Assembly: GCA_040398075.1 (NCBI GenBank)
Contig: JBBAUR010000006.1
Location: forward strand, 22,318 to 86,317
Length of the DNA stretch: 64,000 nucleotides
Origin: Bdellovibrionota bacterium
Lineage (GTDB): Bacteria > Bdellovibrionota_C > UBA2361 > OMII01
Direction of reading: 5' to 3'
Below are positions 28,314-61,781 of this stretch, piece after piece. Made by a program: the position numbers and the translations under genes. The notes beneath the pieces were generated by a model, which worked only from the letters and a program-made list of their open reading frames with translations, was not told the origin of the DNA and did no database searches. Every line of letters starts with the position of its first letter. Positions within the stretch are counted from its first letter, which is position 1.

Positions 28314-28528
28314 TTAACAGGCTGCGGAAGAATGGCTTCTTCGCGAGAAATTCGAGGTTTTGGTGATGGGTGAGGATGAGAGCGCGAAAAAACCGCGGGT
28401 GTATCCACGACTCGACTACTGCTCGCCGAAGTCTGCAATACATTGAGGATTTTTTCGCGCTCTCATCCTCGACCAGCGCCGAAAGATCGAATTTCGCAGC
28501 AGAAGAGCATTTTTCCGCAACCTGTTAA
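28314..28528. mobile_element. Composite MITE copy 2: outer 106-bp element carrying a nested ~110-bp second MITE (TIR GAGGATGAGAGCGCGAAAAAA)
   Basis: Outer TIRs ttaacaggctgcggaagaatg...catttttccgcaacctgttaa. Internal IR gatgagagcgcgaaaaaa...ttttttcgcgctctcatc. Same orientation as copy 1 and inverted relative to copy 3. Confidence 0.8.
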
Positions 28529-29421
28529 GGTACTTTGTGGCTCCCCCGCTTCTCCAACTCTATGAGCTCTCGGAGTCCAGAGCTAAGGTCGGTCAGCGGA
28601 ACCCAGCCAAAGCGTGACAAAGCCTCTAGGTCCGCTTTCGAGCAAGAGATCTCATCCGCTCGGTCAGGTAGTTCACCAAAGCGTAGTTCACTACTACTCC
28701 CGGCAAGCGATTTGATACGTTCCACTACGTCTCGAAGCGCTGTTGGTACTCCGGTCCCAACATCAATCGATGTAAAGCCTCGAGATAGAGAGGAGCGCTG
28801 TTCAATGACGGCTCGAAATGCTCGGGCTGCATCTTTCACATGAATAAAGTCGCGAAGCTGGGAACCCGTTGTCAAGGCAATAGAGGGGGCTTCATGTACA
28901 AGTTGTTTGACTATGCTTGGGATGAATTTAGAGGGGCTGTCTGAGGGGCCGTAGAGGTGCTCTAGTCGCATGTTTACTACCGTTAGCCGAGTGTCGAGCA
29001 TAGCGAGTAATGCTACGGAAGCTCTCTTCGTCTCTCGGTAAGCCGCGAGATACTCATACGAAGTCGAGGCTTTACAGAAAAAGGTGTCGATATGAATGAA
29101 CAAAGCTTCAGGAGTAGAGAGGAGAGTCTCGGCAAGACGCAAGGGTAGCAGCGTATTTGTTTCAAGGGTTTCGGCAAGGCTTTCGTCACGTCCATAAGCA
29201 ACTGCCGCATTAATCACCACATGAGCGCCAACGCGTCCTATGAGAGCGGGTAGCTCTCGAGCTTCGCACTCTATTATTTCTACCTCCTGCGAGACTGAGG
29301 TCAACCGAGCTAAAGTCGAACCTGGTCGGCAGCAGGCCACCACCTTATAGCTCGAGGCAAGCTCACCAACGATATGACTTCCGAGAAAACCTGCGGCTCC
29401 AACAACCAGAACGGTATGCAC
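28525..29421 (-). CDS. NAD-dependent sugar epimerase/reductase (SDR family); CDP-deoxyhexose 4-reductase-like
   Basis: N-terminal Rossmann motif VLVVGAAGFLGSHIV and the SDR catalytic region. About 298 aa, similar to CDP-abequose/paratose synthase-type enzymes. Its TAA stop lies within the TTAA terminus of MITE copy 2. Confidence 0.7.
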   Translation of the reverse strand: MHTVLVVGAAGFLGSHIVGELASSYKVVACCRPGSTLARLTSVSQEVEIIECEARELPALIGRVGAHVVINAAVAYGRDESLAETLETNTLLPLRLAETLLSTPEALFIHIDTFFCKASTSYEYLAAYRETKRASVALLAMLDTRLTVVNMRLEHLYGPSDSPSKFIPSIVKQLVHEAPSIALTTGSQLRDFIHVKDAARAFRAVIEQRSSLSRGFTSIDVGTGVPTALRDVVERIKSLAGSSSELRFGELPDRADEISCSKADLEALSRFGWVPLTDLSSGLRELIELEKRGSHKVP

Positions 29422-29436
29422 GATTAGTTCTCCTGG

Positions 29437-30837
29437 TTATTTCTCCCTGCTAAATACAGTAGCCAAGTCAACCCCATTTCGGTATTGACGCGCCCACAAC
29501 TTGGTTGCTTCGCTGGCATCTCGAGAGTGCCGCACCATGTGTGCTCTAACCAGCGCGGCTCCCCGACGAGCATCGAGAGGCAACCTCAATATCAGATTAT
29601 CTGGAATTTCACGCTCGAATCCATAACGAGTCTCGAGAACTGCCACCGATCCGTTGAATTCGAGTGATTTTAACAAAGCGCCCTCGACAGGGGCAGACCA
29701 CTCACTTGGACATAGAACCAGATTGCTTGCAATCACCGCTTCCTTCAGGCCAGTGTTCCAGCTGAGCGGCCTCATCGTGACATTTGCCGAAATAGGTACC
29801 TCCGGCGCTTCACCTCGAACATGTGCAGCCTCGCTAGGGATCAGAAATCTGTACTCAGGCAACTCAGTCGCAAGCTCCAGCGCGTAGCGTATCCCTTTGG
29901 CCGCAATTGCGTGGCCGTGAAGGACGATGTCGAAACGCTCCGTTTCAGGGAGCCTCCGAGATCCTACCACATCGACTCCATTGAACTCATCTGTTCTCAT
30001 GCCAACCACCCTGCAGGTAATTCCACTTCCGAAATGGGTGGCTAGTAGTGCAGCTTGGTGATGCGTTTGGCATAAGAATTCGATGTTCAAAGCAGCAGAG
30101 CGTAACCAACTCAAAAACTCTAGGTTACCTTCTCGAGAAACGGGAATGGGAACGGGCTTACACGAGGGATGACATCTCGAGAGATCTCCCAAGCAATCGA
30201 AACATTCCCCTCGCTTTGACGCACGGTGATTGTAGGACTGAATGCAGAAGAAACCATTATCCAATACATACATGCTGATTTTATTTCCCGCGTTGTACAG
30301 CGACCTGAAGCACTCGTAACCCAGGGTCTGCGGATGAAGAATCACTATATGCGAATCGCGAATAGACGCGATTCGTGCCTGCTCTGCCTCTGAGAAAAAC
30401 CCTCCCGCTGGGAATATCGACCTGACTCCTGCTTCTTTCGCGAACGGCAAAAGAGCTGACAGAAACACACCGGTGCCACCACTGTGGGGAGGCATTCCAC
30501 ATACGAGATATTCCGAGTGACTCGGCAAATCTTCGAGGAGTGTTGGATTTTTTTGGTATTGAGTTCGAATCTCTGCCAGCAGAGACTGAGCTTCCGGTAG
30601 GCACTGAGGATTTAAGTGCTCTCTCTCCAAAGCCGGAATTACTCTGTCTAATTTTCCGAGCTTCAGTGCACACACAGCCGCAAGAAAATAGAGTCCGTTG
30701 ATAGGTGCCTCGACCTCGATGAGCCGATCCAAAAGCTCGAGGCACTCGCGATACCGTTGAGTTTGAAAATACTCAAGTGATTCCTTCAGGCATGCTTGAA
30801 GGTCGGGCGTACTCATCAATAGCGTGGAACTGGTCAT
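29437..30837 (-). CDS. TPR-repeat protein with a C-terminal Cys-containing domain (putative glycosyltransferase-like)
   Basis: N-terminal TPR-like helices (YRECLELLDRLIEV..GLYFLAAVCALKLGKLD). No confident family assignment for the C-terminal 300 aa. Confidence 0.5.
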   Translation of the reverse strand: MTSSTLLMSTPDLQACLKESLEYFQTQRYRECLELLDRLIEVEAPINGLYFLAAVCALKLGKLDRVIPALEREHLNPQCLPEAQSLLAEIRTQYQKNPTLLEDLPSHSEYLVCGMPPHSGGTGVFLSALLPFAKEAGVRSIFPAGGFFSEAEQARIASIRDSHIVILHPQTLGYECFRSLYNAGNKISMYVLDNGFFCIQSYNHRASKRGECFDCLGDLSRCHPSCKPVPIPVSREGNLEFLSWLRSAALNIEFLCQTHHQAALLATHFGSGITCRVVGMRTDEFNGVDVVGSRRLPETERFDIVLHGHAIAAKGIRYALELATELPEYRFLIPSEAAHVRGEAPEVPISANVTMRPLSWNTGLKEAVIASNLVLCPSEWSAPVEGALLKSLEFNGSVAVLETRYGFEREIPDNLILRLPLDARRGAALVRAHMVRHSRDASEATKLWARQYRNGVDLATVFSREK

Positions 30838-31195
30838 GAGTGGTGTCTCAAGAAATCAGGGTACCTGCTGTATAAGATGAGAAGCGTGAAGGTATCGTAG
30901 CCTGTAGACGCGAGACAGGTTGGTGCGACCCCTTAATCGTTCCTAACTTCAATAGCTTACCGCCAATCATGAGTATCATAATTCCTGAATCGCCGCGCGC
31001 CGAAGCGCCTTCAGTGCTAGACAAAATGTGCTCGATGAGCCTACCCGCCTGAACGTAGCGAGGCAAGGCTGCAGAGACCACCTCGAGATAGAACCGTTTC
31101 AGGAAACCATGGTCGGTTTGACTGCATCATAAGCCCCATGAAGGCTGGTACCGCCTAGGCTCACACTATTTCGAGCACTTAATATTTGAGCACCC

Positions 31196-31723
31196 ATGTT
31201 CAAGAATTTCACTACCATGATTCTCGACGTCGATGGAGTGATGACGGACGGGAAATTCTATTACAACTCGACTGGCAAGGCTTTCAAAGCATTCGGACCA
31301 GATGACCACGATGCGCTATCTCTACTCAAGCCATATCTGCACATTCACTTTGTAACCGGCGATCATCGAGGGTTTGAGATCAGCGCGTCGAGAATCGTGC
31401 ACGACATGAATATGCCGCTCGATCTGGTTAGTACTGTAAAACGAATCGATTGGATTCGTGAGCGTTGGGATCCCAAAAGTGTGATCTATATCGGTGACGG
31501 GATCTTCGATCATTACGTGTTCCGTGAGGTCGGGTACTCTATCGCACCAGCTAATGCAGATCCCTTTGCAAAAGAAGTTGCTAACTATGTCACTCGTCGT
31601 TCTGGAGGTGACCGAGCGGTAGCAGAAGCTGCTCTCCATATCTTAGAGAAGTTTTATTCACCCTACGATCGAGCCCAATTGCCCGGGAGCGATGTGGCAC
31701 TCAGCGGCAAGTGGTCCGTGTAA
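31196..31723 (+). CDS. KdsC-family HAD phosphatase (3-deoxy-ulosonate/nonulosonate phosphate phosphatase-like)
   Basis: HAD motif I ILDVDGVMTDG and KdsC/YrbI-like length (175 aa), with the IGDGIFD motif. Confidence 0.75.
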   Translation: MFKNFTTMILDVDGVMTDGKFYYNSTGKAFKAFGPDDHDALSLLKPYLHIHFVTGDHRGFEISASRIVHDMNMPLDLVSTVKRIDWIRERWDPKSVIYIGDGIFDHYVFREVGYSIAPANADPFAKEVANYVTRRSGGDRAVAEAALHILEKFYSPYDRAQLPGSDVALSGKWSV

Positions 31724-31731
31724 GGAGAGAG

Positions 31732-33066
31732 ATGGCAATGTCAAATACTAGGTTTATCTTCGCGCAAGAGAGAAGCGTAATTGATTTACGCGAGTATATA
31801 AGAGATGCAGCTCATCCGATTCTTTGCCTTGGACCGATGTCCGTCAACTGTGTCGAGTCCGTAATTCGTGTTGCCAACCGCCTCAAGCGACCCATTCCGC
31901 TGATTGCGAGCCGCCGCCAAATAGACTGTGAGGCATTTGGTGGAGGATACGTGAATCGGTGGAACACTCGCAGCTTTGCACAGTACGTTCACGCGCGGGA
32001 CCTTGGGTACGTGCCCTTGTGCCGGGATCACGGTGGTCCTTGGCAGGGTAACGGCGAAGCAGATCTGGACGATAAGTCGGCCATGGAGCGTGCCAAGGAG
32101 TCGATGCTCGAGGATATCACATGCGGCTTTGATCTCATTCACATCGACCCATCCTTACGAGGGGGATCGCCAGCTAGTGTCGAGACAGTTGAAAAGATAT
32201 GCGAGCTGTACTCGTTCGTCGTCGAGACCGCAGCACGACTCGGTCGACGCATTGAGATCGAGATAGGCGCCGAACAACAATCAGGACATTTTTCAGAGCC
32301 GGAGGAGCTCGTTTCTCTCTTAAAGCAAATAACCAAGTTCTGTCAGCAACGGGGATTCCAGAAGCCTCTGTTTTGCGTGGTACAGACTGGTACGCTCGTC
32401 AAGGAGATGCGAAACGTAGGCCTTACCGAGGGACGTAAGAACGAAAGTTACGATCAGAAATACGCAGTTGAGAACATAGGGCGTGGAATTAAGTATCTCT
32501 CGGATATCGCTTATATAAATGGGGTCTACATCAAAGAACACAACGGTGACTATTTGAGCGACGGATCGATGGCGTTCAGGACACAGCTTCAAGTCGGGGG
32601 CATCAATATTGCGCCTGAGTTGGGTGTCTTTGAGTCAAAGTGCCTGGTATCCCTCTGTCTCGAGCTGGGCCTTGATTCGCTGCTTCAAGAGATGCTGACG
32701 ATTTTTCACAGCACACGAAAATGGGAGAAATGGCTGAGCGAGAACTCCGTGGCGACGGATCTCGATAAGGCCATCATCGCTGGCCACTATGCATTTTCGA
32801 CACCTGCATTCCTCGAGGTAAAAGAGAAGCTGGCGCATATCGTGCGGGAGAAGGAGAATATCGACCTGGACGAGTATCTCATCGGTCGGTTGTCATCGCT
32901 TGTAACTAGGCTGCTCTGGAACGCCGGTTACTATCAGTCGGTCGGGGAAGAGCTCAGCAAAATTATGGGGGAAACTTTACAACCATGTCAGTCATCGATG
33001 AGTATTTCGACGCCTTCGCTAGACGAGACCTGCCAGGTATCAGTGAGCTCCTCACAGAAGATGTGA
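31732..33066 (+). CDS. GatZ/KbaZ-family protein (tagatose-bisphosphate aldolase non-catalytic subunit / sugar-phosphate 4-epimerase-like)
   Basis: Aligns with GatZ: HPILCLGPMSVNCVESVI...PLIASRRQID...GGYV..W...LCRDHGGPWQ. Start set at the ATG preceded by SD aaggagag. Confidence 0.6.
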   Translation: MAMSNTRFIFAQERSVIDLREYIRDAAHPILCLGPMSVNCVESVIRVANRLKRPIPLIASRRQIDCEAFGGGYVNRWNTRSFAQYVHARDLGYVPLCRDHGGPWQGNGEADLDDKSAMERAKESMLEDITCGFDLIHIDPSLRGGSPASVETVEKICELYSFVVETAARLGRRIEIEIGAEQQSGHFSEPEELVSLLKQITKFCQQRGFQKPLFCVVQTGTLVKEMRNVGLTEGRKNESYDQKYAVENIGRGIKYLSDIAYINGVYIKEHNGDYLSDGSMAFRTQLQVGGINIAPELGVFESKCLVSLCLELGLDSLLQEMLTIFHSTRKWEKWLSENSVATDLDKAIIAGHYAFSTPAFLEVKEKLAHIVREKENIDLDEYLIGRLSSLVTRLLWNAGYYQSVGEELSKIMGETLQPCQSSMSISTPSLDETCQVSVSSSQKM

Positions 33067-33332
33067 CCCTCCAAGACCCAAATGTCGCGTTGGTCTCGGG
33101 GAAAGAGGCGGTTCTTGTTGAATATCAGAAGATATTCTCCTCGTTTCGGTCTATCCTCTGCGAGCTAAGGCGTCGATACATATTTGGCGACGAGTATGCC
33201 GTGGAATTCTCACTACGACTCGAAGCTCTATCGGGTGAACTTGTACGAGTGGATGGCATTGATTGCATAACTCTGTGTGACGGCCGCATCAAGGGTCTAC
33301 GCGCCTACCTGGATGTGAATCCAAAAAACTAA
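32985..33332 (+). CDS. NTF2-like / SnoaL-like small protein
   Basis: 115 aa; MSVIDEYFDAFARRDLPGISELLTEDVTLQDP pattern typical of SnoaL/ketosteroid-isomerase-like domains. Confidence 0.55.
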   Translation: MSVIDEYFDAFARRDLPGISELLTEDVTLQDPNVALVSGKEAVLVEYQKIFSSFRSILCELRRRYIFGDEYAVEFSLRLEALSGELVRVDGIDCITLCDGRIKGLRAYLDVNPKN

Positions 33333-33342
33333 TGTATAGGAC

Positions 33343-34110
33343 ATGAGTATGATAGGTCAATCTTTTGGTGGAAACGAAGTTACTCGAGTAAATCTTGCCT
33401 CTGATAAGTTCTGTGAATTTGCCGCCTCACCCTACGTATATCGGTACTACCGGTTGGAAGCGGAGGGATCCTTGGTTATCGACGGGCTGTCGTCGTTTAC
33501 GATCTTTTGTATGCCTGCTGCCGAGCCGTCCCGAGTCGTGGTCGACGAAGATACTCTCTTGTATCCAGGGGACGTCGCACAAGTCCAGGGCCGGAGCGCA
33601 AGTTTGAAGGCACACCATGCAGCAGCCATTTTAGTAGCAGGATTGTCTGGTCCGTCAGAGGAAGCTGGCGGTGTCGTTACCGTCACGAGAGCAGACAAAG
33701 TAAAGAAAGTTGTCAAGCCATGGGGGCATGAGCTTTGGATAGCCGGCGAGCATAGTGGATACGCCTTGAAGCAGATAGCGATATCAGCCCCGCATAAGAC
33801 GAGCTTGCAGTACCATCATTTTAAGTCTGAGACTAACGTCCTCTTCAGCGGACGCGCAAAGCTACACTACAAGGCGAGCGACACTGATAACAGTAGGCTC
33901 ACTCAAGCCGATATCTCGTCAGTAGAGCTTTCGATTGGCTCGGTGATCAACGTGCAGCCTCCTGTTATTCACCGGATAGAGGCAGTTACCGATCTGATGC
34001 TTTACGAAGTATCCACTCCCCATCTCGACGACGTCGTCCGAGTTCAGGATGATGCGAATCGACCTGACGGTCGGATAGAGGCTGAGCACCAGGGACAGCC
34101 ATGTACGTAG
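33343..34110 (+). CDS. Cupin-domain protein (mannose-6-phosphate isomerase type II-like cupin)
   Basis: KPWGHELWIA motif characteristic of type-II PMI / ManC C-terminal cupins. Confidence 0.6.
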   Translation: MSMIGQSFGGNEVTRVNLASDKFCEFAASPYVYRYYRLEAEGSLVIDGLSSFTIFCMPAAEPSRVVVDEDTLLYPGDVAQVQGRSASLKAHHAAAILVAGLSGPSEEAGGVVTVTRADKVKKVVKPWGHELWIAGEHSGYALKQIAISAPHKTSLQYHHFKSETNVLFSGRAKLHYKASDTDNSRLTQADISSVELSIGSVINVQPPVIHRIEAVTDLMLYEVSTPHLDDVVRVQDDANRPDGRIEAEHQGQPCT

Positions 34111-35726
34111 AAGATCTTCCGACTATTTGCATCCTCGCTGCGGGACGCGGCTCCCGCCTTGGAGAGGTTTCAGACCACCTCAATAAAGCGCTTCTGCCAC
34201 TAGGCAAGAAGGCGATTATTTCTAGGATACTGGAGAAGTTTCCTACGAGGTGCAGCTTCGTCGTGGCGCTTGGTTACAGAGGGGAACAGGTCAAGACATA
34301 CCTTTCGATGGCGCATCCGGACCTGAATATAACCTATGTCGATATACCGAACTGGCAAGGCCCGGGGAGTGGTCCTGGGCTCTCCTTGCTTTGCTGTAAA
34401 CCTGCTATTCCTGGACGCTTTATCTTCGTGGCCTGTGACACTTTGTGGGACGGAGATATCGACCTCGAGAGTCACAACGATTGGTTTGGCGTCGCCACTG
34501 TTTCAGCAGAGGAGTCGAGTCGGTACTGTAATTTCGAGGTATCTGCCGGTCGAATCTCTGCCGTCCACGACAAAGTTTCGGTAAGTGGCCCACAGTACAA
34601 AGCATTCGTAGGACTGTGCCATGTGTTCAATACAAAGACATTCTGGAGCGCGCTCGAGTCAACCTCTCTGATAAAGGGAGAGCATCAGATATCGAATGGG
34701 GTGAGCGAACTAGTAGCCCGTCACGGGCCTCACGCGGTTCCAGTCGAGTGGTATGATACCGGGACGGCCGAACAATTCGCTACGCTAGCGGCCCACTACG
34801 AACAGTTCGATTTCAGTAAGCCAGAGGAGGCAATTTACATCGTCGGCAGCCGGGTAATTAAGTACTTCTCCAAGCCCGAAATAGCCGAACATCGGGCGAA
34901 GCGAGCGCAGTCGCGACCGGGCGTTTTCCCGGAGATTGCCCAGTGCACGAACGGCTTCTACTGGTACCCTTTGCAGCCTGGACATACCTTGTACCAGGGC
35001 TGTTCGCCTCACTTGTTCACAGGGTTACTTGCGTTCCTCGATCGGGAGCTTTGGCAACCAGTACATGTGCCAGTAGACGAGCTGCGGGCCGTATGTCGTA
35101 AATTTTACGTCGATAAGACAGTAGAGAGATTGGCTCTCTACGAGAAAAAGCATCCCGCAGCGGGGAAGACCATGCGGGTCAACGGGGCCGACCTGCCAGC
35201 TATCTCTGATCTCATGTCTCGTATTCCGTGGGATGACCTGCTTGATGCTGAACCGGTCGTATTTCACGGCGATCTGCAGTTCGACAATATTCTGTTCGAC
35301 CCAAAAAGTGGTGTATTTACACTCCTCGATTGGAGGCAGGATTTTGGGGGTCGTACAGACTTTGGCGACCTGTACTACGACTTAGCCAAGCTCAATGGAG
35401 GGCTACTGCTGAATTACGACCTGATCAAGGACAATCACTTCCGCGTGACACACGAGGGTAATGGAGTCTTCTTGGATTTCGCCCGACGGTCGTCCGGGGA
35501 CACATACAAGGAGATTCTTCGCTCTTTCGTGGATACAAAGGGGCTCGATTGGAATCGAGTGGAGCTCATGACTGCTCTCATTTATCTTAATATGTCCCCC
35601 CTTCACGCAGCACCGTTCGATGAACTATTGTACGCTCTGGGCAGGCGAATGCTGTGCCAGGTACTCTACGCACGTGATTACGAAATCGACTCAACTTTAT
35701 ATCTCGGTCTCTCGAAGTCCAACTAA
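34101..35726 (+). CDS. Bifunctional sugar-phosphate nucleotidyltransferase (N-terminal) / APH-like phosphotransferase (C-terminal)
   Basis: N-terminus ICILAAGRGSRLG (sugar-1-P nucleotidyltransferase G-loop). C-terminus HGDLQFDNILFD...DW (APH/choline-kinase Brenner motif). Architecture resembles a LicC-LicA or MurU-AmgK fusion. Confidence 0.75.
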   Translation: MYVEDLPTICILAAGRGSRLGEVSDHLNKALLPLGKKAIISRILEKFPTRCSFVVALGYRGEQVKTYLSMAHPDLNITYVDIPNWQGPGSGPGLSLLCCKPAIPGRFIFVACDTLWDGDIDLESHNDWFGVATVSAEESSRYCNFEVSAGRISAVHDKVSVSGPQYKAFVGLCHVFNTKTFWSALESTSLIKGEHQISNGVSELVARHGPHAVPVEWYDTGTAEQFATLAAHYEQFDFSKPEEAIYIVGSRVIKYFSKPEIAEHRAKRAQSRPGVFPEIAQCTNGFYWYPLQPGHTLYQGCSPHLFTGLLAFLDRELWQPVHVPVDELRAVCRKFYVDKTVERLALYEKKHPAAGKTMRVNGADLPAISDLMSRIPWDDLLDAEPVVFHGDLQFDNILFDPKSGVFTLLDWRQDFGGRTDFGDLYYDLAKLNGGLLLNYDLIKDNHFRVTHEGNGVFLDFARRSSGDTYKEILRSFVDTKGLDWNRVELMTALIYLNMSPLHAAPFDELLYALGRRMLCQVLYARDYEIDSTLYLGLSKSN

Positions 35727-36471
35727 CTTCGGCACCACCGTTTATTCTCATCTTTTCTCGCATTATGGGATCGATGCGATCTACGTTCCACGTGTTGCTC
35801 CTCGCTCGGCGGGCGAACTGATCGCTGCCGTGCGAACTCTGGATGTGCAGGGCTGTAGTGTGTCGATGCCCCTGAAGGGAGATGTCTTGCCGTATCTCGA
35901 TTGGGCTGAGCCTCTCGCTGAAGAGACAGAGATGGTGAACACCATCATTCATCGAAATGGAGCGCTACACGGATATAACTGCGATGCAGCTGGTATGGCT
36001 GACTGCCTTGATGGCCTTCAGCTTGGTTCCGCCCTGATATACGGCTACGGTGCCATCTTCCGCACCGCTGTACATGTCCTCAGAAAGCACGGAGTGTCTC
36101 ATATAACAGGCATAGGAAGGGACCAACAAAAGGCACGGGCTGCTTGTGAGGAGGCCGGAATACTCTTCGGCGGGAGCTGTCGTGACGTGGCTTCCACTGG
36201 CAAGACCTTCGATATCTTGATAAACGCTACGCCTGGGGGCGCGGAGCCTACGCATGAATTGCTCCAGATCGTTCCGTTCGCTCTAAGGGTTTTCGATGTA
36301 GTGCTTTGCAAACATACTACACCACTGGTAGAGGCTGCCGTGTCGGCCGGGAAGCAGGTCACAACAGGCCAGAATATGTACATTGGTCAGCTGGCTCGTC
36401 AATTTTTTCTCTATACCGATATCTCTCCCGATCAAAGCGTAATCCTCGAGGCCGTCAGCAAGGTGCTCTGA
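35674..36471 (+). CDS. Shikimate/quinate dehydrogenase-like (AroE family) oxidoreductase
   Basis: SVSRSPTNFGTTVYSHLFSHYGID...NTI....GYNCDAAG...NATPGG parallels AroE motifs. Probable GTG start at 35674; the track ORF starts at 35620, overlapping the upstream gene. Confidence 0.6.
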   Translation: MITKSTQLYISVSRSPTNFGTTVYSHLFSHYGIDAIYVPRVAPRSAGELIAAVRTLDVQGCSVSMPLKGDVLPYLDWAEPLAEETEMVNTIIHRNGALHGYNCDAAGMADCLDGLQLGSALIYGYGAIFRTAVHVLRKHGVSHITGIGRDQQKARAACEEAGILFGGSCRDVASTGKTFDILINATPGGAEPTHELLQIVPFALRVFDVVLCKHTTPLVEAAVSAGKQVTTGQNMYIGQLARQFFLYTDISPDQSVILEAVSKVL

Positions 36472-36628
36472 AATCACCTGAGGGACGGAATTTCACAGGA
36501 GAGGGGAGCGAGGCATAGGCAAGGTCTCTTGTGGATGATTATCCCCCGTCGCTCTGGACTTTCTGCATGAGCTCACCGCTTTGAGTAGGTCGCGCTATGA
36601 TGTTGGGCGGACTACCTAATCGAGCCCC

Positions 36629-38521
36629 TCAGACACCGATCTTTTTGTTGTTGTGTTCGAAGATCGGGCTGGACGGCACTCCAAAGGCTGGGAGCGGGGG
36701 AGAAACGAACAAAATCGACCTGTGCTCTGTACACAGCACATGGCGAGCGCCTTGCAAAACCAATCGATCTGCGAGCTCAAAGCATCCGCCTTTGACGCCC
36801 GCTCTCTCGTCCGACTCGTCGAACCCGTCTCCACTCAAAGCATCATCGAAGCTAAATGAGAAGCATATGCGATTAGGTAGAGGAAGAATTTGGATAGGTT
36901 CAATCGAACCTTGGGCGTTCACCGGACCCTGTACCTCCCAGGTGCTATGCTCGACTACCACCGAGTGCGGCTGCTCTGAGCCGGAGCTTACGAACTCTGC
37001 AGCAGCAAATTCAAGTAACGATCTGTTGAGTCGAGGAAGCCTATAAGCCAATTCACAAACCGTGACGATCTCTCCCCTGCATTCAGCGAGCGCAACGTTC
37101 AGCGCCGCCCCCTTGTGGAGATTGTCGTGAAAATGACAGGCAATCCAGGCGTCTAAATATTGTGCACGCTCTCTCAGGGCCGCCGGCGGCGTATTGTTCC
37201 AGAGCGAAAGCCAAATAACCTCTATCTCCTTATCGTTACTCACGGACTCAAAAAACGGCTTGAGTGTTTCGAAGCTGCCGTCTTCATAGTCCACGAGTAT
37301 GATTGAATGGCGAGGTCTTGCCTTCTGCAGGTTGAGCTTATAGTACCGAACCTCGCGTAACCAATTCGAGGTTGAGCGTTGTCCCTGGAGGTCAAATGGT
37401 ATGTGTATCCCCGAGCTTGTAGCTGTCCTCATGAACGCCGCAGGAACTACCTTGGTTAGGTCACCGGAGAAGGTTTGCGCGCCGTCAAGGATCATGCTTC
37501 TCATCATTCGATTGTGATGCAGTAGGACTTCATTTTCGTCGACAGATGCGGGCGCCTCGATTCGACTGATTCGCTTTCTCCAAAAGAGCGGCAGCTCATC
37601 GAGAGCACAGCGATAATCAGCGCCGCTCGGACTCGTGCATGCAAAGGCGGGATTCAGCGGGTTTACGTTCGTAAACCCTGGCATCCGAGCATCAGAAAGG
37701 TAATTTATCCTTATATCTCCTTCGAAGAATCCGTCGGGAATCCTGAGCGGCGGACATGTCCGAATATCTAATCCTTGATGAGAGTATGCATCGTAATGAC
37801 GGAGCAGCTCACGTTTGGGCCACAACATGGCCATCTCGGGTGATGGAATACCATCCGCTCTGAAATGTAATTGAGTGCCGAGGTTGCGCTTCAGCCAGAA
37901 GTCCTCGAGCACGGGCATACTCATCACTAACAAACTTCCCGATTCGCGCATTGCGAGCACGGCGTACTCGTCCGTATCCTCGAGAAGAGGCTGGCCTGGT
38001 TGATTGAGTTGAGAGAGGTAGACTTGTCCGAAAATCTGGCTCCAATGCGAGAACAATAAGCTCGCATATCCGTATCTTCTCGATAGCTCCCGAAGCTTGG
38101 ATAGGAGCCTCTCGAGATAGTCGATATCCTTGTCGACAAACACGTGATCGTCATTGCCGAGATACCAAACGAGCTCATCAGCAGAATTCTCAGCCTTGAT
38201 CATTTCTACCGACTCTCTCCACTGCGGTAAAAACTCATTGCGACCCCTCCTGATATAGGCGGCCGGAAACAGAGACCGGATGTAGTCATCCATTTCGTCG
38301 TAGCGTGATTCGTATTCCGAATCCAACCGATAATATATGTAGACGCGAGAGAACGGGATCACTTCCAGACTGGCGAGCATGTACCGGAATACATCGAACC
38401 GGGTATCAGGAGGGGGAAAGAGTCCTCGATCATAGAATACTCCGAGGCGCGCCTCCGTAACGAAGACATTAACAAAAAGAATCATAGATGTGCCCGATGT
38501 TTCGTACCCGATTAAGAACAA
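36629..38521 (-). CDS. Large putative glycosyltransferase (630 aa, GT-A-like with a DxD-type motif)
   Basis: GNDDHVFVDKD DxD-like motif. Position within the glycan operon. No confident family assignment. Confidence 0.5.
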   Translation of the reverse strand: MFLIGYETSGTSMILFVNVFVTEARLGVFYDRGLFPPPDTRFDVFRYMLASLEVIPFSRVYIYYRLDSEYESRYDEMDDYIRSLFPAAYIRRGRNEFLPQWRESVEMIKAENSADELVWYLGNDDHVFVDKDIDYLERLLSKLRELSRRYGYASLLFSHWSQIFGQVYLSQLNQPGQPLLEDTDEYAVLAMRESGSLLVMSMPVLEDFWLKRNLGTQLHFRADGIPSPEMAMLWPKRELLRHYDAYSHQGLDIRTCPPLRIPDGFFEGDIRINYLSDARMPGFTNVNPLNPAFACTSPSGADYRCALDELPLFWRKRISRIEAPASVDENEVLLHHNRMMRSMILDGAQTFSGDLTKVVPAAFMRTATSSGIHIPFDLQGQRSTSNWLREVRYYKLNLQKARPRHSIILVDYEDGSFETLKPFFESVSNDKEIEVIWLSLWNNTPPAALRERAQYLDAWIACHFHDNLHKGAALNVALAECRGEIVTVCELAYRLPRLNRSLLEFAAAEFVSSGSEQPHSVVVEHSTWEVQGPVNAQGSIEPIQILPLPNRICFSFSFDDALSGDGFDESDERAGVKGGCFELADRLVLQGARHVLCTEHRSILFVSPPLPAFGVPSSPIFEHNNKKIGV

Positions 38522-38640
38522 GAATAGTCAGAATGCTATATCACCGAGCGTAACTGATCCTGAACTCTTGGACACCAGTAAAAACCGTCAATAAAGCTGT
38601 TATTGAACAGGTCGGGCGACAAGTCTCACGCTGGTCCACT

Positions 38641-39759
38641 CTAGCGCAGCGCTTCCCGTACTGCTTCGATTATCCGATCCTGATCAGCTATCGAAAGATA
38701 AGGATGCATGGGAAGACTGACAACCTCCCCAGAGAGCTGCTCGCTACAAGGAAGCTCGCCTCGTTTGTAGCCGAGGTGTGCGTATGCCTCCTGTAGGTGA
38801 AGAGGCTTGGCATAATACACAACGGCCGGAATATCTTTCGTCTTTAGGTGACTCAGCACCGCATCTCGGTCAGAAATTCGAAGGGTGTATTGGGCCCAAA
38901 CGCTGAGATGGGTATCCGGGACCGAGGGAGTTATCGCTACATCGGCCAGCCCGTCTGTATATCGCCGCGCTACATGTTGCCGTTTTTCTACTTCGTCGTC
39001 GAAGATACTCAATTTTTCCAGCAAAACAGCCGCCTGAAGTGTATCGAGCCGCCCGTTCATACCGATGCGGACATTCCGATACTTATCTACTCCCTGTCCG
39101 TGGACCCGAATCGAGCGCATGACATCCGCTAATTCTCTGCTTTCGCAAAAGATAGCTCCCCCGTCTCCATAACATCCAAGAGGCTTTGCTGGGAAAAAGG
39201 AGGTGGCACTGATTGGGGCGAGATTACAACTGCGACGACCTTTGAATGTGGCTCCGAACGATTGAGCCGCATCCTCAATCACGAAGAGCCCATAGCGCTC
39301 CGCGAAATTGAGCAGTTCATCGAAGTCCGGACATAGTCCGAAAAGGCTCACAGGGATCATCCCCTTTATTGTCATGCCTGGATATCGGCACTTTGCATCT
39401 GTGAGTGCCGCCTCGAGTGTTGCAACGCTCACCACGAAGGTCTGCGGATCGACATCCACGAAGATGGGAGTGGCCCCGACAAGCGAAACCACCTCTGCAG
39501 TGGCGAAAAAAGTGAATGCTGGCACTAGCACTCCATCCCCAGGGCCTACTCCGAGTGCCATCAGTGGTATCAGGAGAGCATCTGTACCATTCGAGCACGT
39601 GAGGCACTCTCGGGAACCCGTGTAATCCCGGAGCTGAGTCTCCAGTTCTTCGATCTCCGGGCCCATGATGTAAGTGCCTGAATCGAGGATCTTCTTGAAG
39701 CGAGCATCGATCCTGTCTCGTATCCGTAGCTGCTGACTTTTAAGATCGATAAAATCCAT
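38641..39759 (-). CDS. DegT/DnrJ/EryC1/StrS-family sugar aminotransferase (PLP-dependent)
   Basis: Full-length match, including CSNGTDALLIPLMALGVGPGDGVLVP..FTFFAT and the C-terminal region. Confidence 0.9.
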   Translation of the reverse strand: MDFIDLKSQQLRIRDRIDARFKKILDSGTYIMGPEIEELETQLRDYTGSRECLTCSNGTDALLIPLMALGVGPGDGVLVPAFTFFATAEVVSLVGATPIFVDVDPQTFVVSVATLEAALTDAKCRYPGMTIKGMIPVSLFGLCPDFDELLNFAERYGLFVIEDAAQSFGATFKGRRSCNLAPISATSFFPAKPLGCYGDGGAIFCESRELADVMRSIRVHGQGVDKYRNVRIGMNGRLDTLQAAVLLEKLSIFDDEVEKRQHVARRYTDGLADVAITPSVPDTHLSVWAQYTLRISDRDAVLSHLKTKDIPAVVYYAKPLHLQEAYAHLGYKRGELPCSEQLSGEVVSLPMHPYLSIADQDRIIEAVREALR

Positions 39760-47579: not shown

Positions 47580-47599
47580 GAAAGAAGCCTCTCGGACTC

Positions 47600-49429: not shown

Positions 49430-49609
49430 CTCCGCGGCAGGGCTCCCGTAATAGACTGTGGCCCCTCATTTTGATGCAGTAGATCCTCTGCACGATTTCG
49501 AAATCTGTACTTTGAGCTGCCACACACGACTCCCGCCGCATCCTAAGTTCTTGGGGGAGCAATCCCTGTGACGCGTCAATGGTGACGACTACGAATATTT
49601 ATTTCTCAT

Positions 49610-50377
49610 ATGTATCGCGCTCGAGTTATGCCCTGCCTCCTCTTAAAAGATGGGGTCTTGGTGAAAACCGTGAAGTTCAAGAACCCCACGTACGTTGGGG
49701 ACCCGGTCAATGCCATTCGGATATACAACGAACTGGAGGTGGACGAATTGGTCTTCCTCGATATTACCGCCACCGCCGGTGGTAAGAAGCCTCCCTTCAA
49801 AGTCCTAGCTGAAATCGCAGATGAATGCTTCATGCCACTTGCCTACGGAGGGGGTATCCGTAGCCTCGAGGAGGCGCGCACTATCTTTAGCCTCGGCTTT
49901 GAGAAGGTCGTGTTGAACACGGCTGCTTTTGAGCAGCCCGAATTAGTGCGAAGCATCGCCGAGACCTTCGGCAGTCAGAGTATCGTGGTATCCGTAGACG
50001 CTCGTGCTAAATTACTCGGGGGTTACGAAGCCTATGTTCGCAACGGACAGGTCAGTACCAAAATGGAGGTCGTCCGATATGCAAAACGCGCCGTTGAATT
50101 AGGTGCCGGTGAGCTTCTTCTCTATTCAATCGATCGCGATGGCACTCACTCTGGCTACGACTTATCTCTCATTCAACGGGTTACCGCTGCAGTATCAGTG
50201 CCTGTAGTCGCATGTGGTGGAGCACACAGCGTAGAAGATTTCGGACGTGCCGTTCATCAGGCAGGCGCTTCGGCATGCGCGGCAGGAAGTATGGTTGTTC
50301 ATTTTGGTCCTCACCGGGCGGTGCTGATCAACTTCCCAGATGCACAGGTAATTGACAGAGAGCTCACACGTCATTAG
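49610..50377 (+). CDS. hisF: Imidazole glycerol phosphate synthase cyclase subunit paralogue (HisF-like, WbuZ-type)
   Basis: MYRARVMPCLLLKDGVLVKTVKF...VGDPVNAIRIYNELEVDELVFLDITA...(beta/alpha)8 HisF signature. Confidence 0.9.
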   Translation: MYRARVMPCLLLKDGVLVKTVKFKNPTYVGDPVNAIRIYNELEVDELVFLDITATAGGKKPPFKVLAEIADECFMPLAYGGGIRSLEEARTIFSLGFEKVVLNTAAFEQPELVRSIAETFGSQSIVVSVDARAKLLGGYEAYVRNGQVSTKMEVVRYAKRAVELGAGELLLYSIDRDGTHSGYDLSLIQRVTAAVSVPVVACGGAHSVEDFGRAVHQAGASACAAGSMVVHFGPHRAVLINFPDAQVIDRELTRH

Positions 50378-54325: not shown

Positions 54326-55477
54326 CTAGCTTTCTCGTGATTTCAACACAATCTCCGAGGCTCGCGTGAATGCTATGCTCCGTGGCGGAATATTTTTCAC
54401 AACGACACAGCCCGAGCCTACAATTGAGTGCTCTCCTAGCACCAGGCGAGGTTCGACGAAGACCCCCGTGCCGAGCTTGATCTCGTCCTCGATCGTCACT
54501 GAGCCCGATGTCATGACACCCGGTCCGAATGTACAGTGACTACCAACTATGTTGTGGTGCTCGATATTGCAATGCGCTGATATGAAATTATTACTTCCGA
54601 TCTCTGCGCAGGGGCCCACCGTAACGTTCGCTAGGATCACGTTACCATCTCCGAGCGCGGTCTCTATACCGATATAAGCACTCCGATGGATTACGTTCAC
54701 CAGCGGGATGCCCGCATCCCGCAATTTCTCAAAAACCTCCTTGCGAACGGAGATTGAGCCTGAGACGGATATTACAGCAGCGTCGAAGAGACCACGTGCA
54801 AGATCGGCTTTCATGGCAGCGGCGTCGACGCTTCCACATACAGGGATACCATAAATGCTCTGTCCATGCTTCGAGCTCTCGTCGTCATAAATACACACCG
54901 GACACAGGGAGCTTCCAACCATTGCATCGAGAACCTGAATGAAGGCCTTTCCTCCTCCGACGACGGCTATACGGCGAAAACGATTCGTGTTCGGAGAACG
55001 CGCAACCACTGCATCACGAGCGGAGCGGCGACTCGTCGAGAGGATGAAGTCATTTACTATCTTTTCGGTAATCAGTGCTTGCGAAAATACGCTGGGATTT
55101 ATGCCATGACTATCGAGTAGCTTCTTTGCCTTGGCAGTTATCGTTTTAGCTGAATCTCCGGCTGATTGAGGAGATCGCGACTCGACGACAGGAGCAAGTG
55201 CGCGTTGGTACTCGGCCGCATCTGCTTCCGCATAGCGCTCGAGTACGAGAAAGAGTCCTTGATTGACCTGAACCATGTCTCCCAAGGAATGTGAGGTGAC
55301 AAACACACCATCGGTCTCGGCATGAACTTCGTAGGAGGCTTTACTGGAGTCTAGTGTCATGACGAGATCGCCCCTCTTCACTCGTTCTCCGTTCGAAAAG
55401 CGTATCTCGGCTACCTTGTAGGTGGCATCGTTGACATTCAACTGCTCGCAACGCTGTATGTTGGTCTCGTGGATCAT
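54326..55477 (-). CDS. Chimeric E2-like protein: lipoyl domain + E3-binding (PSBD)-like segment + PglD/NeuD hexapeptide acetyltransferase domain
   Basis: N-terminal lipoyl-attachment motif VMTLDSSKASYEVHAETDGVFV. Linker with a PSBD-like AKAKKLLDSHGINPSVF. C-terminal NeuD/PglD-like RIAVVGGGKAFIQVLDA plus LbH repeats. Confidence 0.75.
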   Translation of the reverse strand: MIHETNIQRCEQLNVNDATYKVAEIRFSNGERVKRGDLVMTLDSSKASYEVHAETDGVFVTSHSLGDMVQVNQGLFLVLERYAEADAAEYQRALAPVVESRSPQSAGDSAKTITAKAKKLLDSHGINPSVFSQALITEKIVNDFILSTSRRSARDAVVARSPNTNRFRRIAVVGGGKAFIQVLDAMVGSSLCPVCIYDDESSKHGQSIYGIPVCGSVDAAAMKADLARGLFDAAVISVSGSISVRKEVFEKLRDAGIPLVNVIHRSAYIGIETALGDGNVILANVTVGPCAEIGSNNFISAHCNIEHHNIVGSHCTFGPGVMTSGSVTIEDEIKLGTGVFVEPRLVLGEHSIVGSGCVVVKNIPPRSIAFTRASEIVLKSRES

Positions 55478-57450
55478 ACCATCTCTTTGATTAGCCGCTT
55501 GATAGTAGCTACGCTCGGCAAAAGAGTTAACTCCCCGGCGTGAGAGCTCGGAATCACGGAATTATTGCCGATCCGGCGAAATTCTTGAATAGGTGTTTTC
55601 ACCTCAGTAAGCGCTGCTACTACCTCGGCGCCTAGAGCGGCAAAACTCGGGCCTTCTTCGACCACCAGAAGTCGTTTGGAGCGTTGCACCGACTCAATGA
55701 GAGGCGTCAAATTGAGGGGCTGTATTCGCGTAGGAGCTATCAGCTCGACTGATATCTCCTCCTCGAGGAAGGCCTCCTCGAGGGCTCTTTCGCAGTCCCA
55801 CAGCGTACCTCCGTAGCAAAATAGAGTTATCGCAGCACCAGCTGCGGGTTCTCTGGGTGATATGCGTAGGGTTGGATACTGCTCGTCAGAGAGCCAATAG
55901 GTGTGAGTTGCATTCATAGCCTCATTGAGAAACCGTCCATAGTCGAGCTTGTTCTCGATGAAGAGGGCTGGGGACTTCGAGCACTTGAACCAATGTCCGT
56001 AGAGCTCGGTCGGGTCAACGCGGTAGTTGGGCGCTATTATCTCCAAATGCGACGCTCCGAGAAAAAGACGCTCGAGCGACTGGGAATGCGTTGGGCCGTA
56101 GCCACGTTTGCCACCCATCGGAGTACGCAGCATGAAGGGTAGCGGAATTCGCCGCCCATACATGCCCTGGATCTTGCATGCCTGCTGCAGGATCTGATCA
56201 ACTACGAGGGTCGTGAAATCACCGAACATGATTTCTGCGACAGTTCGTACACCACTGAGGGCCATACCGATACCGAGCCCTACAACACCGGCTTCGCTGA
56301 TAGGCGTGTTATTGACGCGGCTTGGAAAAAGAACGCTCAGATCCTTCGTAACCTTGAAGGCTCCACCGTAAGAGCGGGGATTAAACTCGTTTCTGTCCTC
56401 GATATCCTCGCCAAAGATGTGCAGGAGCTCGTCGCACTCTAACGCGCCCCGAAGGGTCCGATAAATTCCCTCATTCAAGCGGATCGATTCGTCCGATAGG
56501 GTCAGCGCCTTATACTTGCACTGTGTATTGTGTATCAATTCCGAGACATTCGGCGAGGTGAGAAGCGGATCTTGTGTGACCGCAGTAAGAATGTGCTGTA
56601 GTTCGGCCTCCACTTCCTGGGTAAGGGACGAAAAAAGCTCAGGCTGCTGCAAGGCAAACTGGTTAATTGGATCGCGCTCGACAAAAGTACGAACCTCATC
56701 GGGATTCCGATTGTCGTCCCCTTTCGAGTGCGAGTTCAGTCGATAGCAATCGATCTCGATGAAACACGGCTCACACGATCGGGTCTTCTGGACCGCTTCT
56801 GCCACTGTTGTATTCAGTCGTTCAGGCTCCCAGATCGACCCGCTGAAAAAGTGGATACCGAAACCCGTTACACGCGCATTGAGGTCGCCCCGAAATGTTT
56901 GGCGGGCGCTCGTCGATTGGGCATAACCGTTATTCTCGAGCACGAAGAGTGTAGGAGCCTTGTAGAGAGCTGCTAACTGTAACGCCTCGTACAGCACGCC
57001 CTCGCCGAGAGTTCCATCGCCGAGGAAGACAACTGATATCGGCTCCGTTTCTGGTGCGATCTGCGAGCGTCCGAGTGAAAAGCCTACTCCGACCGGCGCA
57101 AACCCCCCTTGGATACCGTTACTGAAGAACCCCTCGCCTAAGAGATGCTGGCTTCCTCCATATCCTCCAGAGCAACCAGACGCTCGCCCCATTACCTCCG
57201 CGAGTAGGCCACGTAGGTCTCCAGTTTTAGCGAGATAATGTCCGTGTCCTCGATGGTTCGAAAAGAAGGTGTCTAAGTCCTTCATGTGCTGTGCTAGCAC
57301 AGCAGGAATAAGCTCCTGACCCACGCATGTATGCACGGTACCGTTCAGCTTGCCCTCTGCAAACAGCTTGAGTAGGAGCTGCTCAAAGTGGCGGATGGTG
57401 ATCGCTGTTTTCCAAACCTGCGGTGTGATCATGTAAAATGTCGGCTTCAA
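55474..57450 (-). CDS. TPP-dependent 2-oxoacid dehydrogenase E1 component, fused alpha-beta subunits
   Basis: Alpha-type TPP motif FLGDGTLGEGVLYEALQLAALYKAPTLFVLENNGYAQST. Beta-type SEAGVVGLGIGMALSGVRTVAEIMFGDF and a transketolase-C-like tail. 658 aa. 4-nt overlap with the downstream E2-like gene. Confidence 0.85.
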   Translation of the reverse strand: MKPTFYMITPQVWKTAITIRHFEQLLLKLFAEGKLNGTVHTCVGQELIPAVLAQHMKDLDTFFSNHRGHGHYLAKTGDLRGLLAEVMGRASGCSGGYGGSQHLLGEGFFSNGIQGGFAPVGVGFSLGRSQIAPETEPISVVFLGDGTLGEGVLYEALQLAALYKAPTLFVLENNGYAQSTSARQTFRGDLNARVTGFGIHFFSGSIWEPERLNTTVAEAVQKTRSCEPCFIEIDCYRLNSHSKGDDNRNPDEVRTFVERDPINQFALQQPELFSSLTQEVEAELQHILTAVTQDPLLTSPNVSELIHNTQCKYKALTLSDESIRLNEGIYRTLRGALECDELLHIFGEDIEDRNEFNPRSYGGAFKVTKDLSVLFPSRVNNTPISEAGVVGLGIGMALSGVRTVAEIMFGDFTTLVVDQILQQACKIQGMYGRRIPLPFMLRTPMGGKRGYGPTHSQSLERLFLGASHLEIIAPNYRVDPTELYGHWFKCSKSPALFIENKLDYGRFLNEAMNATHTYWLSDEQYPTLRISPREPAAGAAITLFCYGGTLWDCERALEEAFLEEEISVELIAPTRIQPLNLTPLIESVQRSKRLLVVEEGPSFAALGAEVVAALTEVKTPIQEFRRIGNNSVIPSSHAGELTLLPSVATIKRLIKEMV

Positions 57451-60587: not shown

Positions 60588-60622
60588 GGGCCCGATCATC
60601 ATTTGGTGGTCGGGTTTTTTTT
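60588..60622 (+). terminator. Rho-independent terminator
   Basis: gggcccgatcatcatttggtggtcggg followed by tttttttt. Confidence 0.6.
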
Positions 60623-61032
60623 ACCTTGCGACCTGTTTCATTTGGGGTTTTGAGCGAGCCTTGACTCGATGAGCCTTAAAGAGCTCCACCTACACCGCTC
60701 GATTGCGCCTTGCCTGGTATAGCGTTTGGTTTCTTGTACGCTAACTTAAAGCCCTGGGCAGGGGATGACGCAACTCACTATGGCTGTGCGTGATTTTGTA
60801 TTTTGCCCTTAATTTCCGTCTATAGAAGCGCGCATAGCGCTAGAGGCCGTGGCTTTTGCCGCAGTGCGTTGCGCTGGCCCTGCTATTGCGAGTGAGTTTT
60901 TTAAAATCCTTTGATCTGGGTTTATACCCTAGGCTAAATACTATTTTGTTATTAGCATCTCTTATGATCACCTCTTAGGTGACCTGCAGGTGCCGAAATT
61001 GGTGATTTATAAATAGTCAAATGGGGATTGCT

Positions 61033-61515
61033 ATGAATAAAAAACTCGTTGCGTCGATGGTAGTAGTATGTGCTGCTGTGTTGAGTGTTGATTTTGCTCA
61101 CGCAGGTCGCAAATTTGGGCAGATTTATCGACAATGTGGGCTCGGTGCGATGATTGCATCAGACGATCCGACGTTGGCCTTGGTCTCTAACATCACCACG
61201 GACTTGGGCACTACTGCCATTCTGTCCAATGCTACTACCCCCGATACGTGTAAGGGTTCGAGCGCCAAGACAGCATTATTCATTCACGAGTCCTACGATG
61301 CGCTCGCTAGTGATCTTTCTCGTGGCCAGGGAAGGTACTTGGACTCCCTTGCAGCGCTCAACTCGTGGTCGGGGGAATCACAAAAGGTGATCACGGAACA
61401 CATTCGCGCTGATTTTGCCAAGGTCGTTGCCTCAAACGGCTACTCGGAGAAGAGTCGTCTCGACAAATCAGAGGCTCTCTTTGATATCGTCGAGAAACAT
61501 ATCGCTCAGTCATAA
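61033..61515 (+). CDS. Secreted hypothetical protein (signal peptide)
   Basis: MNKKLVASMVVVCAAVLSVDFAHA signal peptide followed by a hydrophilic 130-aa domain. Purine-rich gggg stretch upstream of the ATG. Confidence 0.6.
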   Translation: MNKKLVASMVVVCAAVLSVDFAHAGRKFGQIYRQCGLGAMIASDDPTLALVSNITTDLGTTAILSNATTPDTCKGSSAKTALFIHESYDALASDLSRGQGRYLDSLAALNSWSGESQKVITEHIRADFAKVVASNGYSEKSRLDKSEALFDIVEKHIAQS

Positions 61516-61567
61516 AGATACTGGATTCGAGAGGTCTCGAATCCTCATAGGTTCACGCCCGGGCAGC

Positions 61568-61781
61568 TTAACAGGCTGCGGAAAAATGCTCTTCTGCTGC
61601 GAAATCCGGTCTTTCGGAGCTGGTCGAAGATGAGAGCGCGAAAAAATCCTCAATGTATCGCAGACTTCGGCGAGCTGTAGTCGAGTCGTGGATACACCAG
61701 CGATTTTTTCGCGCTCTCATCCTCACCCATCACCAAAACCGCGAATTTCTCGCTACGAGGCCATTTTCCGCTGCCTGTTAA
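61568..61781. mobile_element. Composite MITE copy 3, inverted relative to copy 2
   Basis: ttaacaggctgcggaaaaatg...ccattttccgctgcctgttaa. Internal gatgagagcgcgaaaaaa...ttttttcgcgctctcatc. Reverse complement of copy 2 with a few mismatches. Confidence 0.8.

Follow-up and report, generated by a model that had tools for sequence, protein, structure and literature searches.

A stretch of 64,000 nucleotides from a Bdellovibrionota bacterium (contig JBBAUR010000006.1, positions 22,318 to 86,317; hereafter the window) contains three copies of a short, non-coding repeat, which we call copies A, B and C. They are transposable elements of the miniature inverted-repeat type (MITEs). Copies A and B stand in opposite orientation on the two sides of 33 kb of DNA with many sugar-modifying genes, and the initial annotation regarded this bracketed segment as a unit that may have been mobilised or may invert. 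The sequence comparisons described here make it most probable that A and B are independent MITE insertions, that the bracket is coincidental, and that the 33 kb are ordinary chromosome.

Three copies of one element

Copies A and B represent a long form of the element and copy C a short form (Table 1). When copy A is aligned with the reverse complement of copy B, 200 of 215 positions are identical; the longest perfect runs are 37, 30, 29 and 22 nt, and 15 differences separate the two. Copy C corresponds to the two outer halves of the long form joined directly, minus the 109 bp found at 28370-28478 in copy A. The outer terminal repeat, TTAACAGGCTGCGGAAAAATG, has six matches in the window, that is, both ends of the three elements, and shuffled sequences give an expectation of zero. 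The 21-nt terminal repeats at both ends of A, B and C have 0-3 mismatches. The inner repeat, GAGGATGAGAGCGCGAAAAAA, is matched four times (0.01 expected), at both ends of the central module in the two long copies. An nhmmer profile search of the 64 kb found no family member beyond these three.

The ends of the MITEs are CAGGCTGCGGAAAAATG, with TTAA at each flank of a CAGG...CCTG core. TTAA bounds every copy on both sides; as it is palindromic, it may represent a 4-bp duplication or belong to the repeat. No direct repeat flanking the copies was found beyond the terminal TTAA. The elements have no apparent coding capacity: stop codons occur in nearly every frame, no open stretch exceeds 70 codons, and no open reading frame (ORF) bears a Pfam domain. 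Rfam models at gathering thresholds detect only a tRNA-Thr in the window, and the repeats match none of the families. The predicted RNA fold of copy A on its transcribed (-) strand has a free energy of -112.9 kcal/mol (z = -13), and that of copy B on the + strand -99.4 kcal/mol (z = -9). All of the MITE features that were looked for are present, save a target duplication, which is inseparable from TTAA. The initial annotation had described two near-identical inverted copies and a third, simple copy without the inner element, and had called them MITEs. The first two points are borne out by the alignments, and the third by the size, the terminal repeats, the lack of coding capacity and the abundance of the family.

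Table 1. Positions of the MITE copies, their internal parts and the adjoining genes in the window
Feature	Position	Strand	Remarks
MITE copy A, long form, 215 bp	28314..28528	.	imperfect palindrome end to end
Central module of copy A, 109 bp	28370..28478	.	missing in copy C
Inner inverted repeats of copy A	28372-28392 and 28450-28470		
MITE copy B, long form, 214 bp	61568..61781	.	inverted relative to copy A, 93% identical
Central module of copy B	61618..61726	.	inner inverted repeats 61626-61646 and 61704-61724
MITE copy C, short form, 106 bp	21197..21302	.	without central module; oriented as copy A
NAD-dependent epimerase gene	28525..29421	-	relatives annotated as CDP-paratose synthase
Nucleotidyltransferase (cytidylyltransferase) gene	27336..28265	-	directly downstream of MITE A; same strand
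Dehydratase (4,6-dehydratase) gene	26309-27406	-	overlaps its neighbours
DegT gene	24720-26312	-	after the dehydratase gene
GT61 glycosyltransferase gene	21904-22995		further out
DUF3015 gene	61021..61515	+	last gene in the bracketed segment; conserved partner of the next gene
DUF7843/Lnb_N/DUF7840 (DUF4105-type) gene	61790..63715	+	just outside the bracketed segment
Terminator-like hairpin split by MITE B	61557..61806	+	left stem GCCCGGGCAGC at 61557-61567; right remnant CCGGGC and T-rich tail at 61790-61806
Periplasmic binding protein (Peripla_BP_6) gene remnants around copy C	21014..21687	+	

Insertion sites and the 33-kb interval

Copy A lies among genes on one strand, in the order epimerase, MITE, cytidylyltransferase, dehydratase and DegT. 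These genes look like one operon for a cytidine diphosphate (CDP)-linked dideoxyhexose with the MITE inside it. The TAA stop codon of the epimerase gene is located within the terminal TTAA of the element, so that insertion at a pre-existing TTAA would leave the epimerase protein unchanged. A relative with 72% amino-acid identity (L070), which was compared with window positions 29437-54199, shares this operon together with a gene for a 466-amino-acid protein. Its order is the 466-amino-acid gene, epimerase, a spacer of 128 bp, nucleotidyltransferase, dehydratase and DegT, with no MITE. A conserved motif of the spacer, AATCTTGAAACCTTTT, begins exactly at the MITE end in the window.

At the other end of the interval, copy B separates the DUF3015 gene from the Lnb_N gene. 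The two genes directly adjoin each other in L072, L073 and GCA_041447075.1, and copy B is missing at the orthologous site in L072 and L073. L072 has an uninterrupted hairpin at this place (GCCCGGGCAGCTATACATCTGCCCGGGCTTTATATTTT), which is composed of GCCCGGGCAGC-TATACAT-CTGCCCGGGC with a T-run after it. MITE B of the window stands between GCCCGGGCAGC and ...CCGGGC-TTTATCTTTTT.

Two further observations concern this locus. A perfect hairpin with a 9-bp stem (GGATTCGAG...CTCGAATCC) is found at 61523-61544, between the DUF3015 stop codon, which it directly follows, and the hairpin that is split by MITE B; it is conserved in a relative of 74% identity (L072, 851-872). The public model of the Lnb_N/DUF4105 protein (P0041, 675 amino acids) starts at a GTG codon at 61688, which is inside MITE B, and the related Lnb_N proteins have 607-652 amino acids. 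The start of this gene was probably mis-called owing to the MITE insertion, an example of how the family misleads gene callers. Exact-sequence look-ups gave no match for either the DUF3015 protein or the 675-amino-acid model.

Since both adjacencies are intact in relatives that lack the MITEs, copies A and B are lineage-specific insertions into ancestral adjacencies. The conserved adjacencies also mean that, with respect to the ancestral order, the block is neither inserted nor moved nor inverted, and the assembled orientation is the ancestral one. The initial annotation had suggested comparing the block between related genomes. That comparison turned out against the proposal that the segment was mobilised as a unit: the genes flanking each MITE site are adjacent in the MITE-less relatives, copy A splits an operon, copy B splits a conserved pair, and GC content is flat.

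Mobilisation of the block as a composite transposon or island, with the two MITEs as its borders, would account for terminal inverted copies of a transposable element around a variable glycan cluster, and the interior does differ from the corresponding region of L070. However, the genes inside and outside each MITE are neighbours in the MITE-less relatives, and one biosynthetic pathway spans copy A. GC content stays at 0.50-0.54 across the window with no step at A or B, and each MITE has a complete pair of ends of its own. A mobilised island is therefore extremely improbable. Glycan genes are found on both sides of copy A. The interior has many sugar-modifying genes and ends with an erythromycin esterase homologue, a desaturase gene and the DUF3015 gene, and these last three are no glycan module. 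In L070, homologues of the window's GFO_IDH_MocA, DegT and TPR-containing Glyco_trans_1_2 genes, which lie about 20 kb further in, are located close to the epimerase operon. This placement indicates that the content of the glycan cluster varies between relatives, independently of the MITEs. The MITE family can imitate the borders of an island.

The inverted pair may also be considered as a substrate for RecA-dependent recombination, by which the 33 kb would be inverted in a part of the population, for example as a glycan switch. The two inverted repeats of about 215 bp share 93% identity with the perfect runs given above, and repeats of this kind are linked to rearrangements in Neisseria (PMC9778887, PMC2649163). 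If the pair does invert, it would mean population-level variation in the surface-glycan expression of a Bdellovibrionota-like bacterium. However, the assembled order retains both ancestral adjacencies, and an inversion would cut the epimerase gene off from the other genes of its operon and break the DUF3015 and DUF4105 pair. The homology is short and interrupted by the 15 differences. The adjoining genes encode no recombinase domain, and no switch-like promoter is present at the junctions; scans with promoter and terminator consensus sequences gave no match within copy A or next to it, and near copy B they gave weak hairpins only. Furthermore, with dozens of copies per genome, as described below for related bins, inverted pairs tens of kilobases apart are expected by chance. 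We consider such an inversion improbable.

Copy C is located in the remnants of a periplasmic binding protein gene. Before the element are a signal peptide and an N-terminus (21014-21196), with the motif ITIGVPTALSGSAAAFGNDIKNA running straight into the MITE. After the element, a C-terminal part (21331-21687) covers Pfam positions 224-339. As the reading frame resumes at position 224 of 343, about 200 codons are missing. The site looks like a MITE-associated deletion, immediately downstream of the tRNA-Thr gene (20947-21019).

Abundance of the family and probable origin of its ends and inner repeat

A scan for the outer repeat, with one genome per species, returned 56 loci. Most of them are in Lake Mendota metagenome-assembled genomes of Bdellovibrionota, above all in JBILFA01 with at least 31 elements. 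More are present in JBILEW01, JBIIOE01 and JAKAVN01, a bin labelled "Deltaproteobacteria". One of the loci (L048) is syntenic with window positions 14447-21019 at 71-77% nucleotide identity, and this identifies the bins as relatives of the window's organism. L048 has a MITE copy where the window has an empty site. It was set aside as an exact empty site, the spacer being too diverged at about 75% identity. The dominant form in the related bins is 189-191 bp long and has the outer ends and the inner repeats placed as in A and B, with a shorter apex. The other forms are 178 bp (L054), 105 bp (L024, L053), 94 bp (L052) and 58-60 bp (L020, L037, L040). Two outer repeats 1470 bp apart (L027) were examined as a possible autonomous insertion sequence (IS) and proved to be two 190-bp MITEs around rhodanese-like and ArsR-like ORFs.

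About 10 of the copies in related bins lie at contig ends. A Logan contig of run SRR11430613 (L057; 33,096 bp) is from the same strain, its fetched part matching the window exactly from 28501-39421 onward. One of its ends is inside MITE A, and its length equals the distance from A to B. Short-read assembly very likely broke at the repeats here, as is implied by this end and this span, and the family probably fragments short-read assemblies of the lineage in general. The relevance of the elements is mainly in the annotation and assembly of freshwater Bdellovibrionota-like genomes, where they appear to break short-read assemblies. The initial annotation itself noted that repeats found in abundance throughout the genome, with no association to island boundaries, would speak against its view of the bracket. 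This is largely what the related genomes present, with many copies at contig breaks.

In Acidobacteriota bins, the same terminal repeat is found at the ends of MITEs of 109-262 bp whose interiors are unrelated; loci with the same 21-nt ends are L005, L013, L015, L025, L038, L041, L045 and L046. Shared ends on unrelated interiors indicate that the repeat belongs to a widespread IS lineage, from which separate MITE families have arisen in two phyla or more. A 1.27-kb element in a Dehalococcoidia genome (L042) lies between the repeat and a diverged partner and has remnants of a DUF772 and DDE_Tnp_1_6 transposase. Homologues of the L042 protein led to better-preserved copies of 1.34-1.36 kb (L074, L075, L076). 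Their ends are CAGGCTGCGGAAAAAYG ... CATTCTTCCGCAGCCTG, and in each of them a DUF772 ORF precedes a DDE_Tnp_1/DDE_Tnp_1_6 ORF. The MITEs and these insertion sequences have the terminal 17 nt (CAGGCTGCGGAAAAAYG) in common. IS5 makes a 4-bp target duplication of the YTAR type, and the 4-bp flanks of the matched elements fit this pattern (CTAA/CTAA in L076, TTAG/CTAG in L075). The comparison with these insertion sequences points to CAGG...CCTG as the core of the MITEs and TTAA as their target. The leader and start codon region of the IS can also be aligned in part with the MITE arm. Unlike the insertion sequences, the MITEs encode nothing.

The matched insertion sequences come from Chloroflexota/Dehalococcoidia assemblies; they appear degraded or split in two reading frames, and we name the parent as a type only (IS5/IS1182-type), not to the exact family or subgroup. 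Of the genome-wide search for family members and their parent that the initial annotation proposed, the first part, applied to related genomes, gave an abundant and dispersed family, whereas the second gave a match to an IS type from other lineages only. A DUF772 N-terminus abutting 30 nt of a MITE end (L003) was rejected as the parent; no second end was found, and its protein is only distantly related to the transposase that these ends bound. Nothing useful was found in the literature on IS1182 with TTAA or on nested bacterial MITEs.

The long form can be explained in two ways. In the initial annotation, it was a MITE within a MITE. An unrelated MITE with the GAGGATGAGAGCGCGAAAAAA repeat would have inserted once into a 106-bp outer MITE, the composite would have been amplified, and the 106-bp copies would be the uninterrupted ancestor or excision products. 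Such nested MITEs are well documented in plant genomes, where likewise a short inverted-repeat element seems to stand inside another and the combination spreads as a unit. Several features agree with nesting. The 21-nt inner inverted repeats are near-perfect, and the two arms agree more closely in them than in the outer sequence next to them; cutting the 109 bp from copy A yields copy C almost exactly. Short copies with the same junction are found in three genomes (copy C, L024 and L053), which suggests that the short form also propagates.

Nevertheless, the inner module is never found alone. The window, 587 kb of related loci and a metagenome scan yielded no solo copy, the last being a weak test because the composite form is also missing there. 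The 12 hits of the inner repeat in that scan are unrelated and single; they neither form pairs nor have outer ends. Two BLAST hits that appeared to be solo inner modules (L031, about 4262-4500; L037, about 3700-3870) are decayed old composites with outer arms around the inner module; the decayed copy in L031 has a longer apex that contains the apex sequence specific to the window. At this L031 locus (JBILEW010000024.1), the inner repeat is changed on both arms together, with ACGATGGGGAAAAACCC instead of GATGAGAGCGCGAAAAAA, and the paired change indicates that the hairpin was kept by concerted change. No target duplication was found at the borders of the inner module, and the palindrome runs through the supposed inner junction, with GGTGATGG and GGCGCTGG on the two arms. 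In genuinely nested cases, the inner family exists independently and has its own target duplication; neither was found for the window family.

The second explanation, which we prefer, is that the long form is a fold-back of the left end of the IS and the shorter forms are its deletion derivatives. The whole 215 bp folds as a single hairpin. Nucleotides 48-85 of the arm align with nucleotides 54-92 of the IS left end (L074, L075), across the ATG of the transposase, with a score of 24; of 500 shuffled sequences, 0 to 1 attained it. The inner repeat corresponds to the ribosome-binding site and start codon of the related transposase gene, and its distance from the end agrees as well. Read as codons, the inner repeat is ATG-AGA-GCG-CGA-AAA-AAT-CCT-CAA, or MRARKNPQ, and the N-termini of the transposases are MRGRRNPQ and MRGRHDPQ. 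From this resemblance, the inner repeat looks like a relic of the transposase start region.

The length variants are also consistent with deletion. Those of 58-60, 94, 105-106, 178 and 189-191 bp differ only around the dyad and share one axis, and most have microhomology at their junctions (CGAA in L020, TTCT in L040, ATCTT in L024 and, from reading the sequences by eye, CCGC in L054 and CCGCAG in L052). The junction of the 105-106-bp form lies at an imperfect direct repeat, ATCTTTCGG / ATCTTCGA, and the short copies can equally be deletion products on this ground. Of the initial proposal, the inner repeats and the existence of an uninterrupted 105-106-bp form hold good, whereas the missing solo family, the missing inner duplication and the continuous palindrome do not agree with nesting. 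Likewise, a short form exists, as its alternatives of an earlier outer element or an excised insert implied, and yet the length variants read as a series of microhomology deletions around the dyad.

Several points weigh against a fold-back origin and mobilisation by an IS of this type. As TTAA is palindromic and always present, a target duplication is inseparable from the element ends. Neither the window nor the fetched Bdellovibrionota loci yielded an intact transposase of this type, which leaves mobilisation in trans within the lineage putative. The arm aligns with the IS left end over a short stretch (38 nt), and this alignment was one of 16 comparisons. The metagenome collection does not sample the lineage. 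The 106-bp junction in the window copy has only imperfect microhomology. Finally, 20-21 of the 21 nt of the inner repeat are conserved between the arms, and conservation is much lower in the roughly 35 nt toward the terminal repeat, which is the pattern that a true nested MITE would show. On balance, we regard the fold-back with deletions as probable and true nesting as possible but doubtful. That the window holds either a two-level nested transposon with a still-mobile inner module or a reversible inversion of the 33-kb glycan region, the two taken jointly, is very improbable. What looks like one MITE inside another can be a folded-back IS end that retains the start region of the transposase, and its length classes can derive from deletions at the hairpin axis. 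Automated calls of nested transposons deserve caution for this reason.

Possible mechanism, RNA-level effects and related repeat families

We infer that one non-autonomous family inserted three times independently, each time in an intergenic spacer, to give copies A, B and C. The family would be mobilised in trans by a DDE transposase of the IS5/IS1182 type that inserts at TTAA, a 4-bp target of the YTAR kind. Copy A would have landed at the TTAA overlapping the epimerase stop codon inside the CDP-sugar operon, and copy B in the loop of the terminator-like hairpin between the DUF3015 and DUF4105 genes. Copy C would be an internally deleted form associated with the decayed binding-protein gene. 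The long form may have arisen by fold-back of the terminal repeat, the 5' leader and the first transposase codons, which would place the start region on both arms. Shorter derivatives may have followed by slippage or by hairpin-associated, microhomology-mediated deletion around the dyad, and some of them would then have spread as well. The direction of change would thus be deletion and not insertion.

The opposite orientation of A and B may be a coin-flip outcome for a near-palindromic element. Both would be transcribed with their host genes in the same relative sense, and the host operons face opposite ways, which is why A and B are inverted on the chromosome. The effects on the host operons would be neutral or mildly polar.

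The common transcribed sense raises the possibility that the elements are co-opted as regulators at the RNA level. A hairpin with a stem of about 100 bp may be cut or bound by ribonuclease III (RNase III), or may stabilise the upstream mRNA, and would uncouple expression within an operon. Both long copies lie between same-strand genes, and their predicted hairpins are very stable. There is a precedent in the Correia elements of Neisseria, whose mRNA hairpins have been shown to be RNase III substrates (PMC2649163). By analogy, an mRNA hairpin of the size seen here could be such a substrate. However, no orientation rule is apparent, as copy C and the copy in L048 are turned the other way with respect to local transcription. 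Furthermore, the sites are not conserved between relatives, and the elements have no terminator tail. Co-option is unlikely, and any effect on expression is probably incidental to selfish spread.

The Correia elements resemble the window family in several other respects. They are likewise small, abundant and intergenic MITEs with terminal inverted repeats and A/T-rich palindromic targets. They also occur in discrete size classes with shared ends and a differing core, form hairpins in mRNA, break short-read assemblies and lie near points of rearrangement (PMC2649163, PMC9778887). The size classes of these elements (CREE) are 104-108 and 153-157 bp, in addition to 71-73-bp and other deletion variants (PMC2649163, PMC9778887). 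However, the two families have no sequence relationship, and the flanks are TTAA in the window family and TA in Correia elements. The window element is a long palindrome throughout, whereas Correia elements have a 26-bp repeat and an asymmetric core. Unlike in Correia elements, neither a site for integration host factor nor a promoter consensus was found in the window elements, and a candidate type of parent IS can be named for them. By these likenesses, Correia elements are the closest functional analogue, and the window family is not a member.

The ERIC/IRU repeats and other small palindromic repeats of enterobacteria (RU-1, RU-2 and RU-3) are likewise imperfect palindromes, about 100-170 bp long, in intergenic regions that are transcribed, and they similarly have longer and shorter classes with shared ends (PMC2759123). 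ERIC is not known to have a clear transposase partner or a defined target duplication; the window family, in contrast, has transposon-like ends that match an IS, and the sequences are unrelated.

Some other features of the window are worth mentioning. The region at 54326-57450 (-) encodes a fused E1 protein of 658 amino acids (E1_dh, Transket_pyr and Transketolase_C), followed by a protein with a biotin/lipoyl-attachment domain and a hexapeptide acyltransferase domain and no normal E2 catalytic domain. From their domain composition, they appear to be an unusual pair resembling 2-oxoacid dehydrogenase components, inside the sugar-modification cluster. Also within the glycan cluster, HisH-like (GATase) and HisF-like (His_biosynth) genes surround an asparagine-synthase-like gene at 46299-50377, a set that resembles the amidotransferase sets making acetamidino sugars. 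An inverted repeat with 38-nt arms, 76% complementary and separated by a 2-nt spacer, is located at 14245-14322, just downstream of a gene that ends at 14227.

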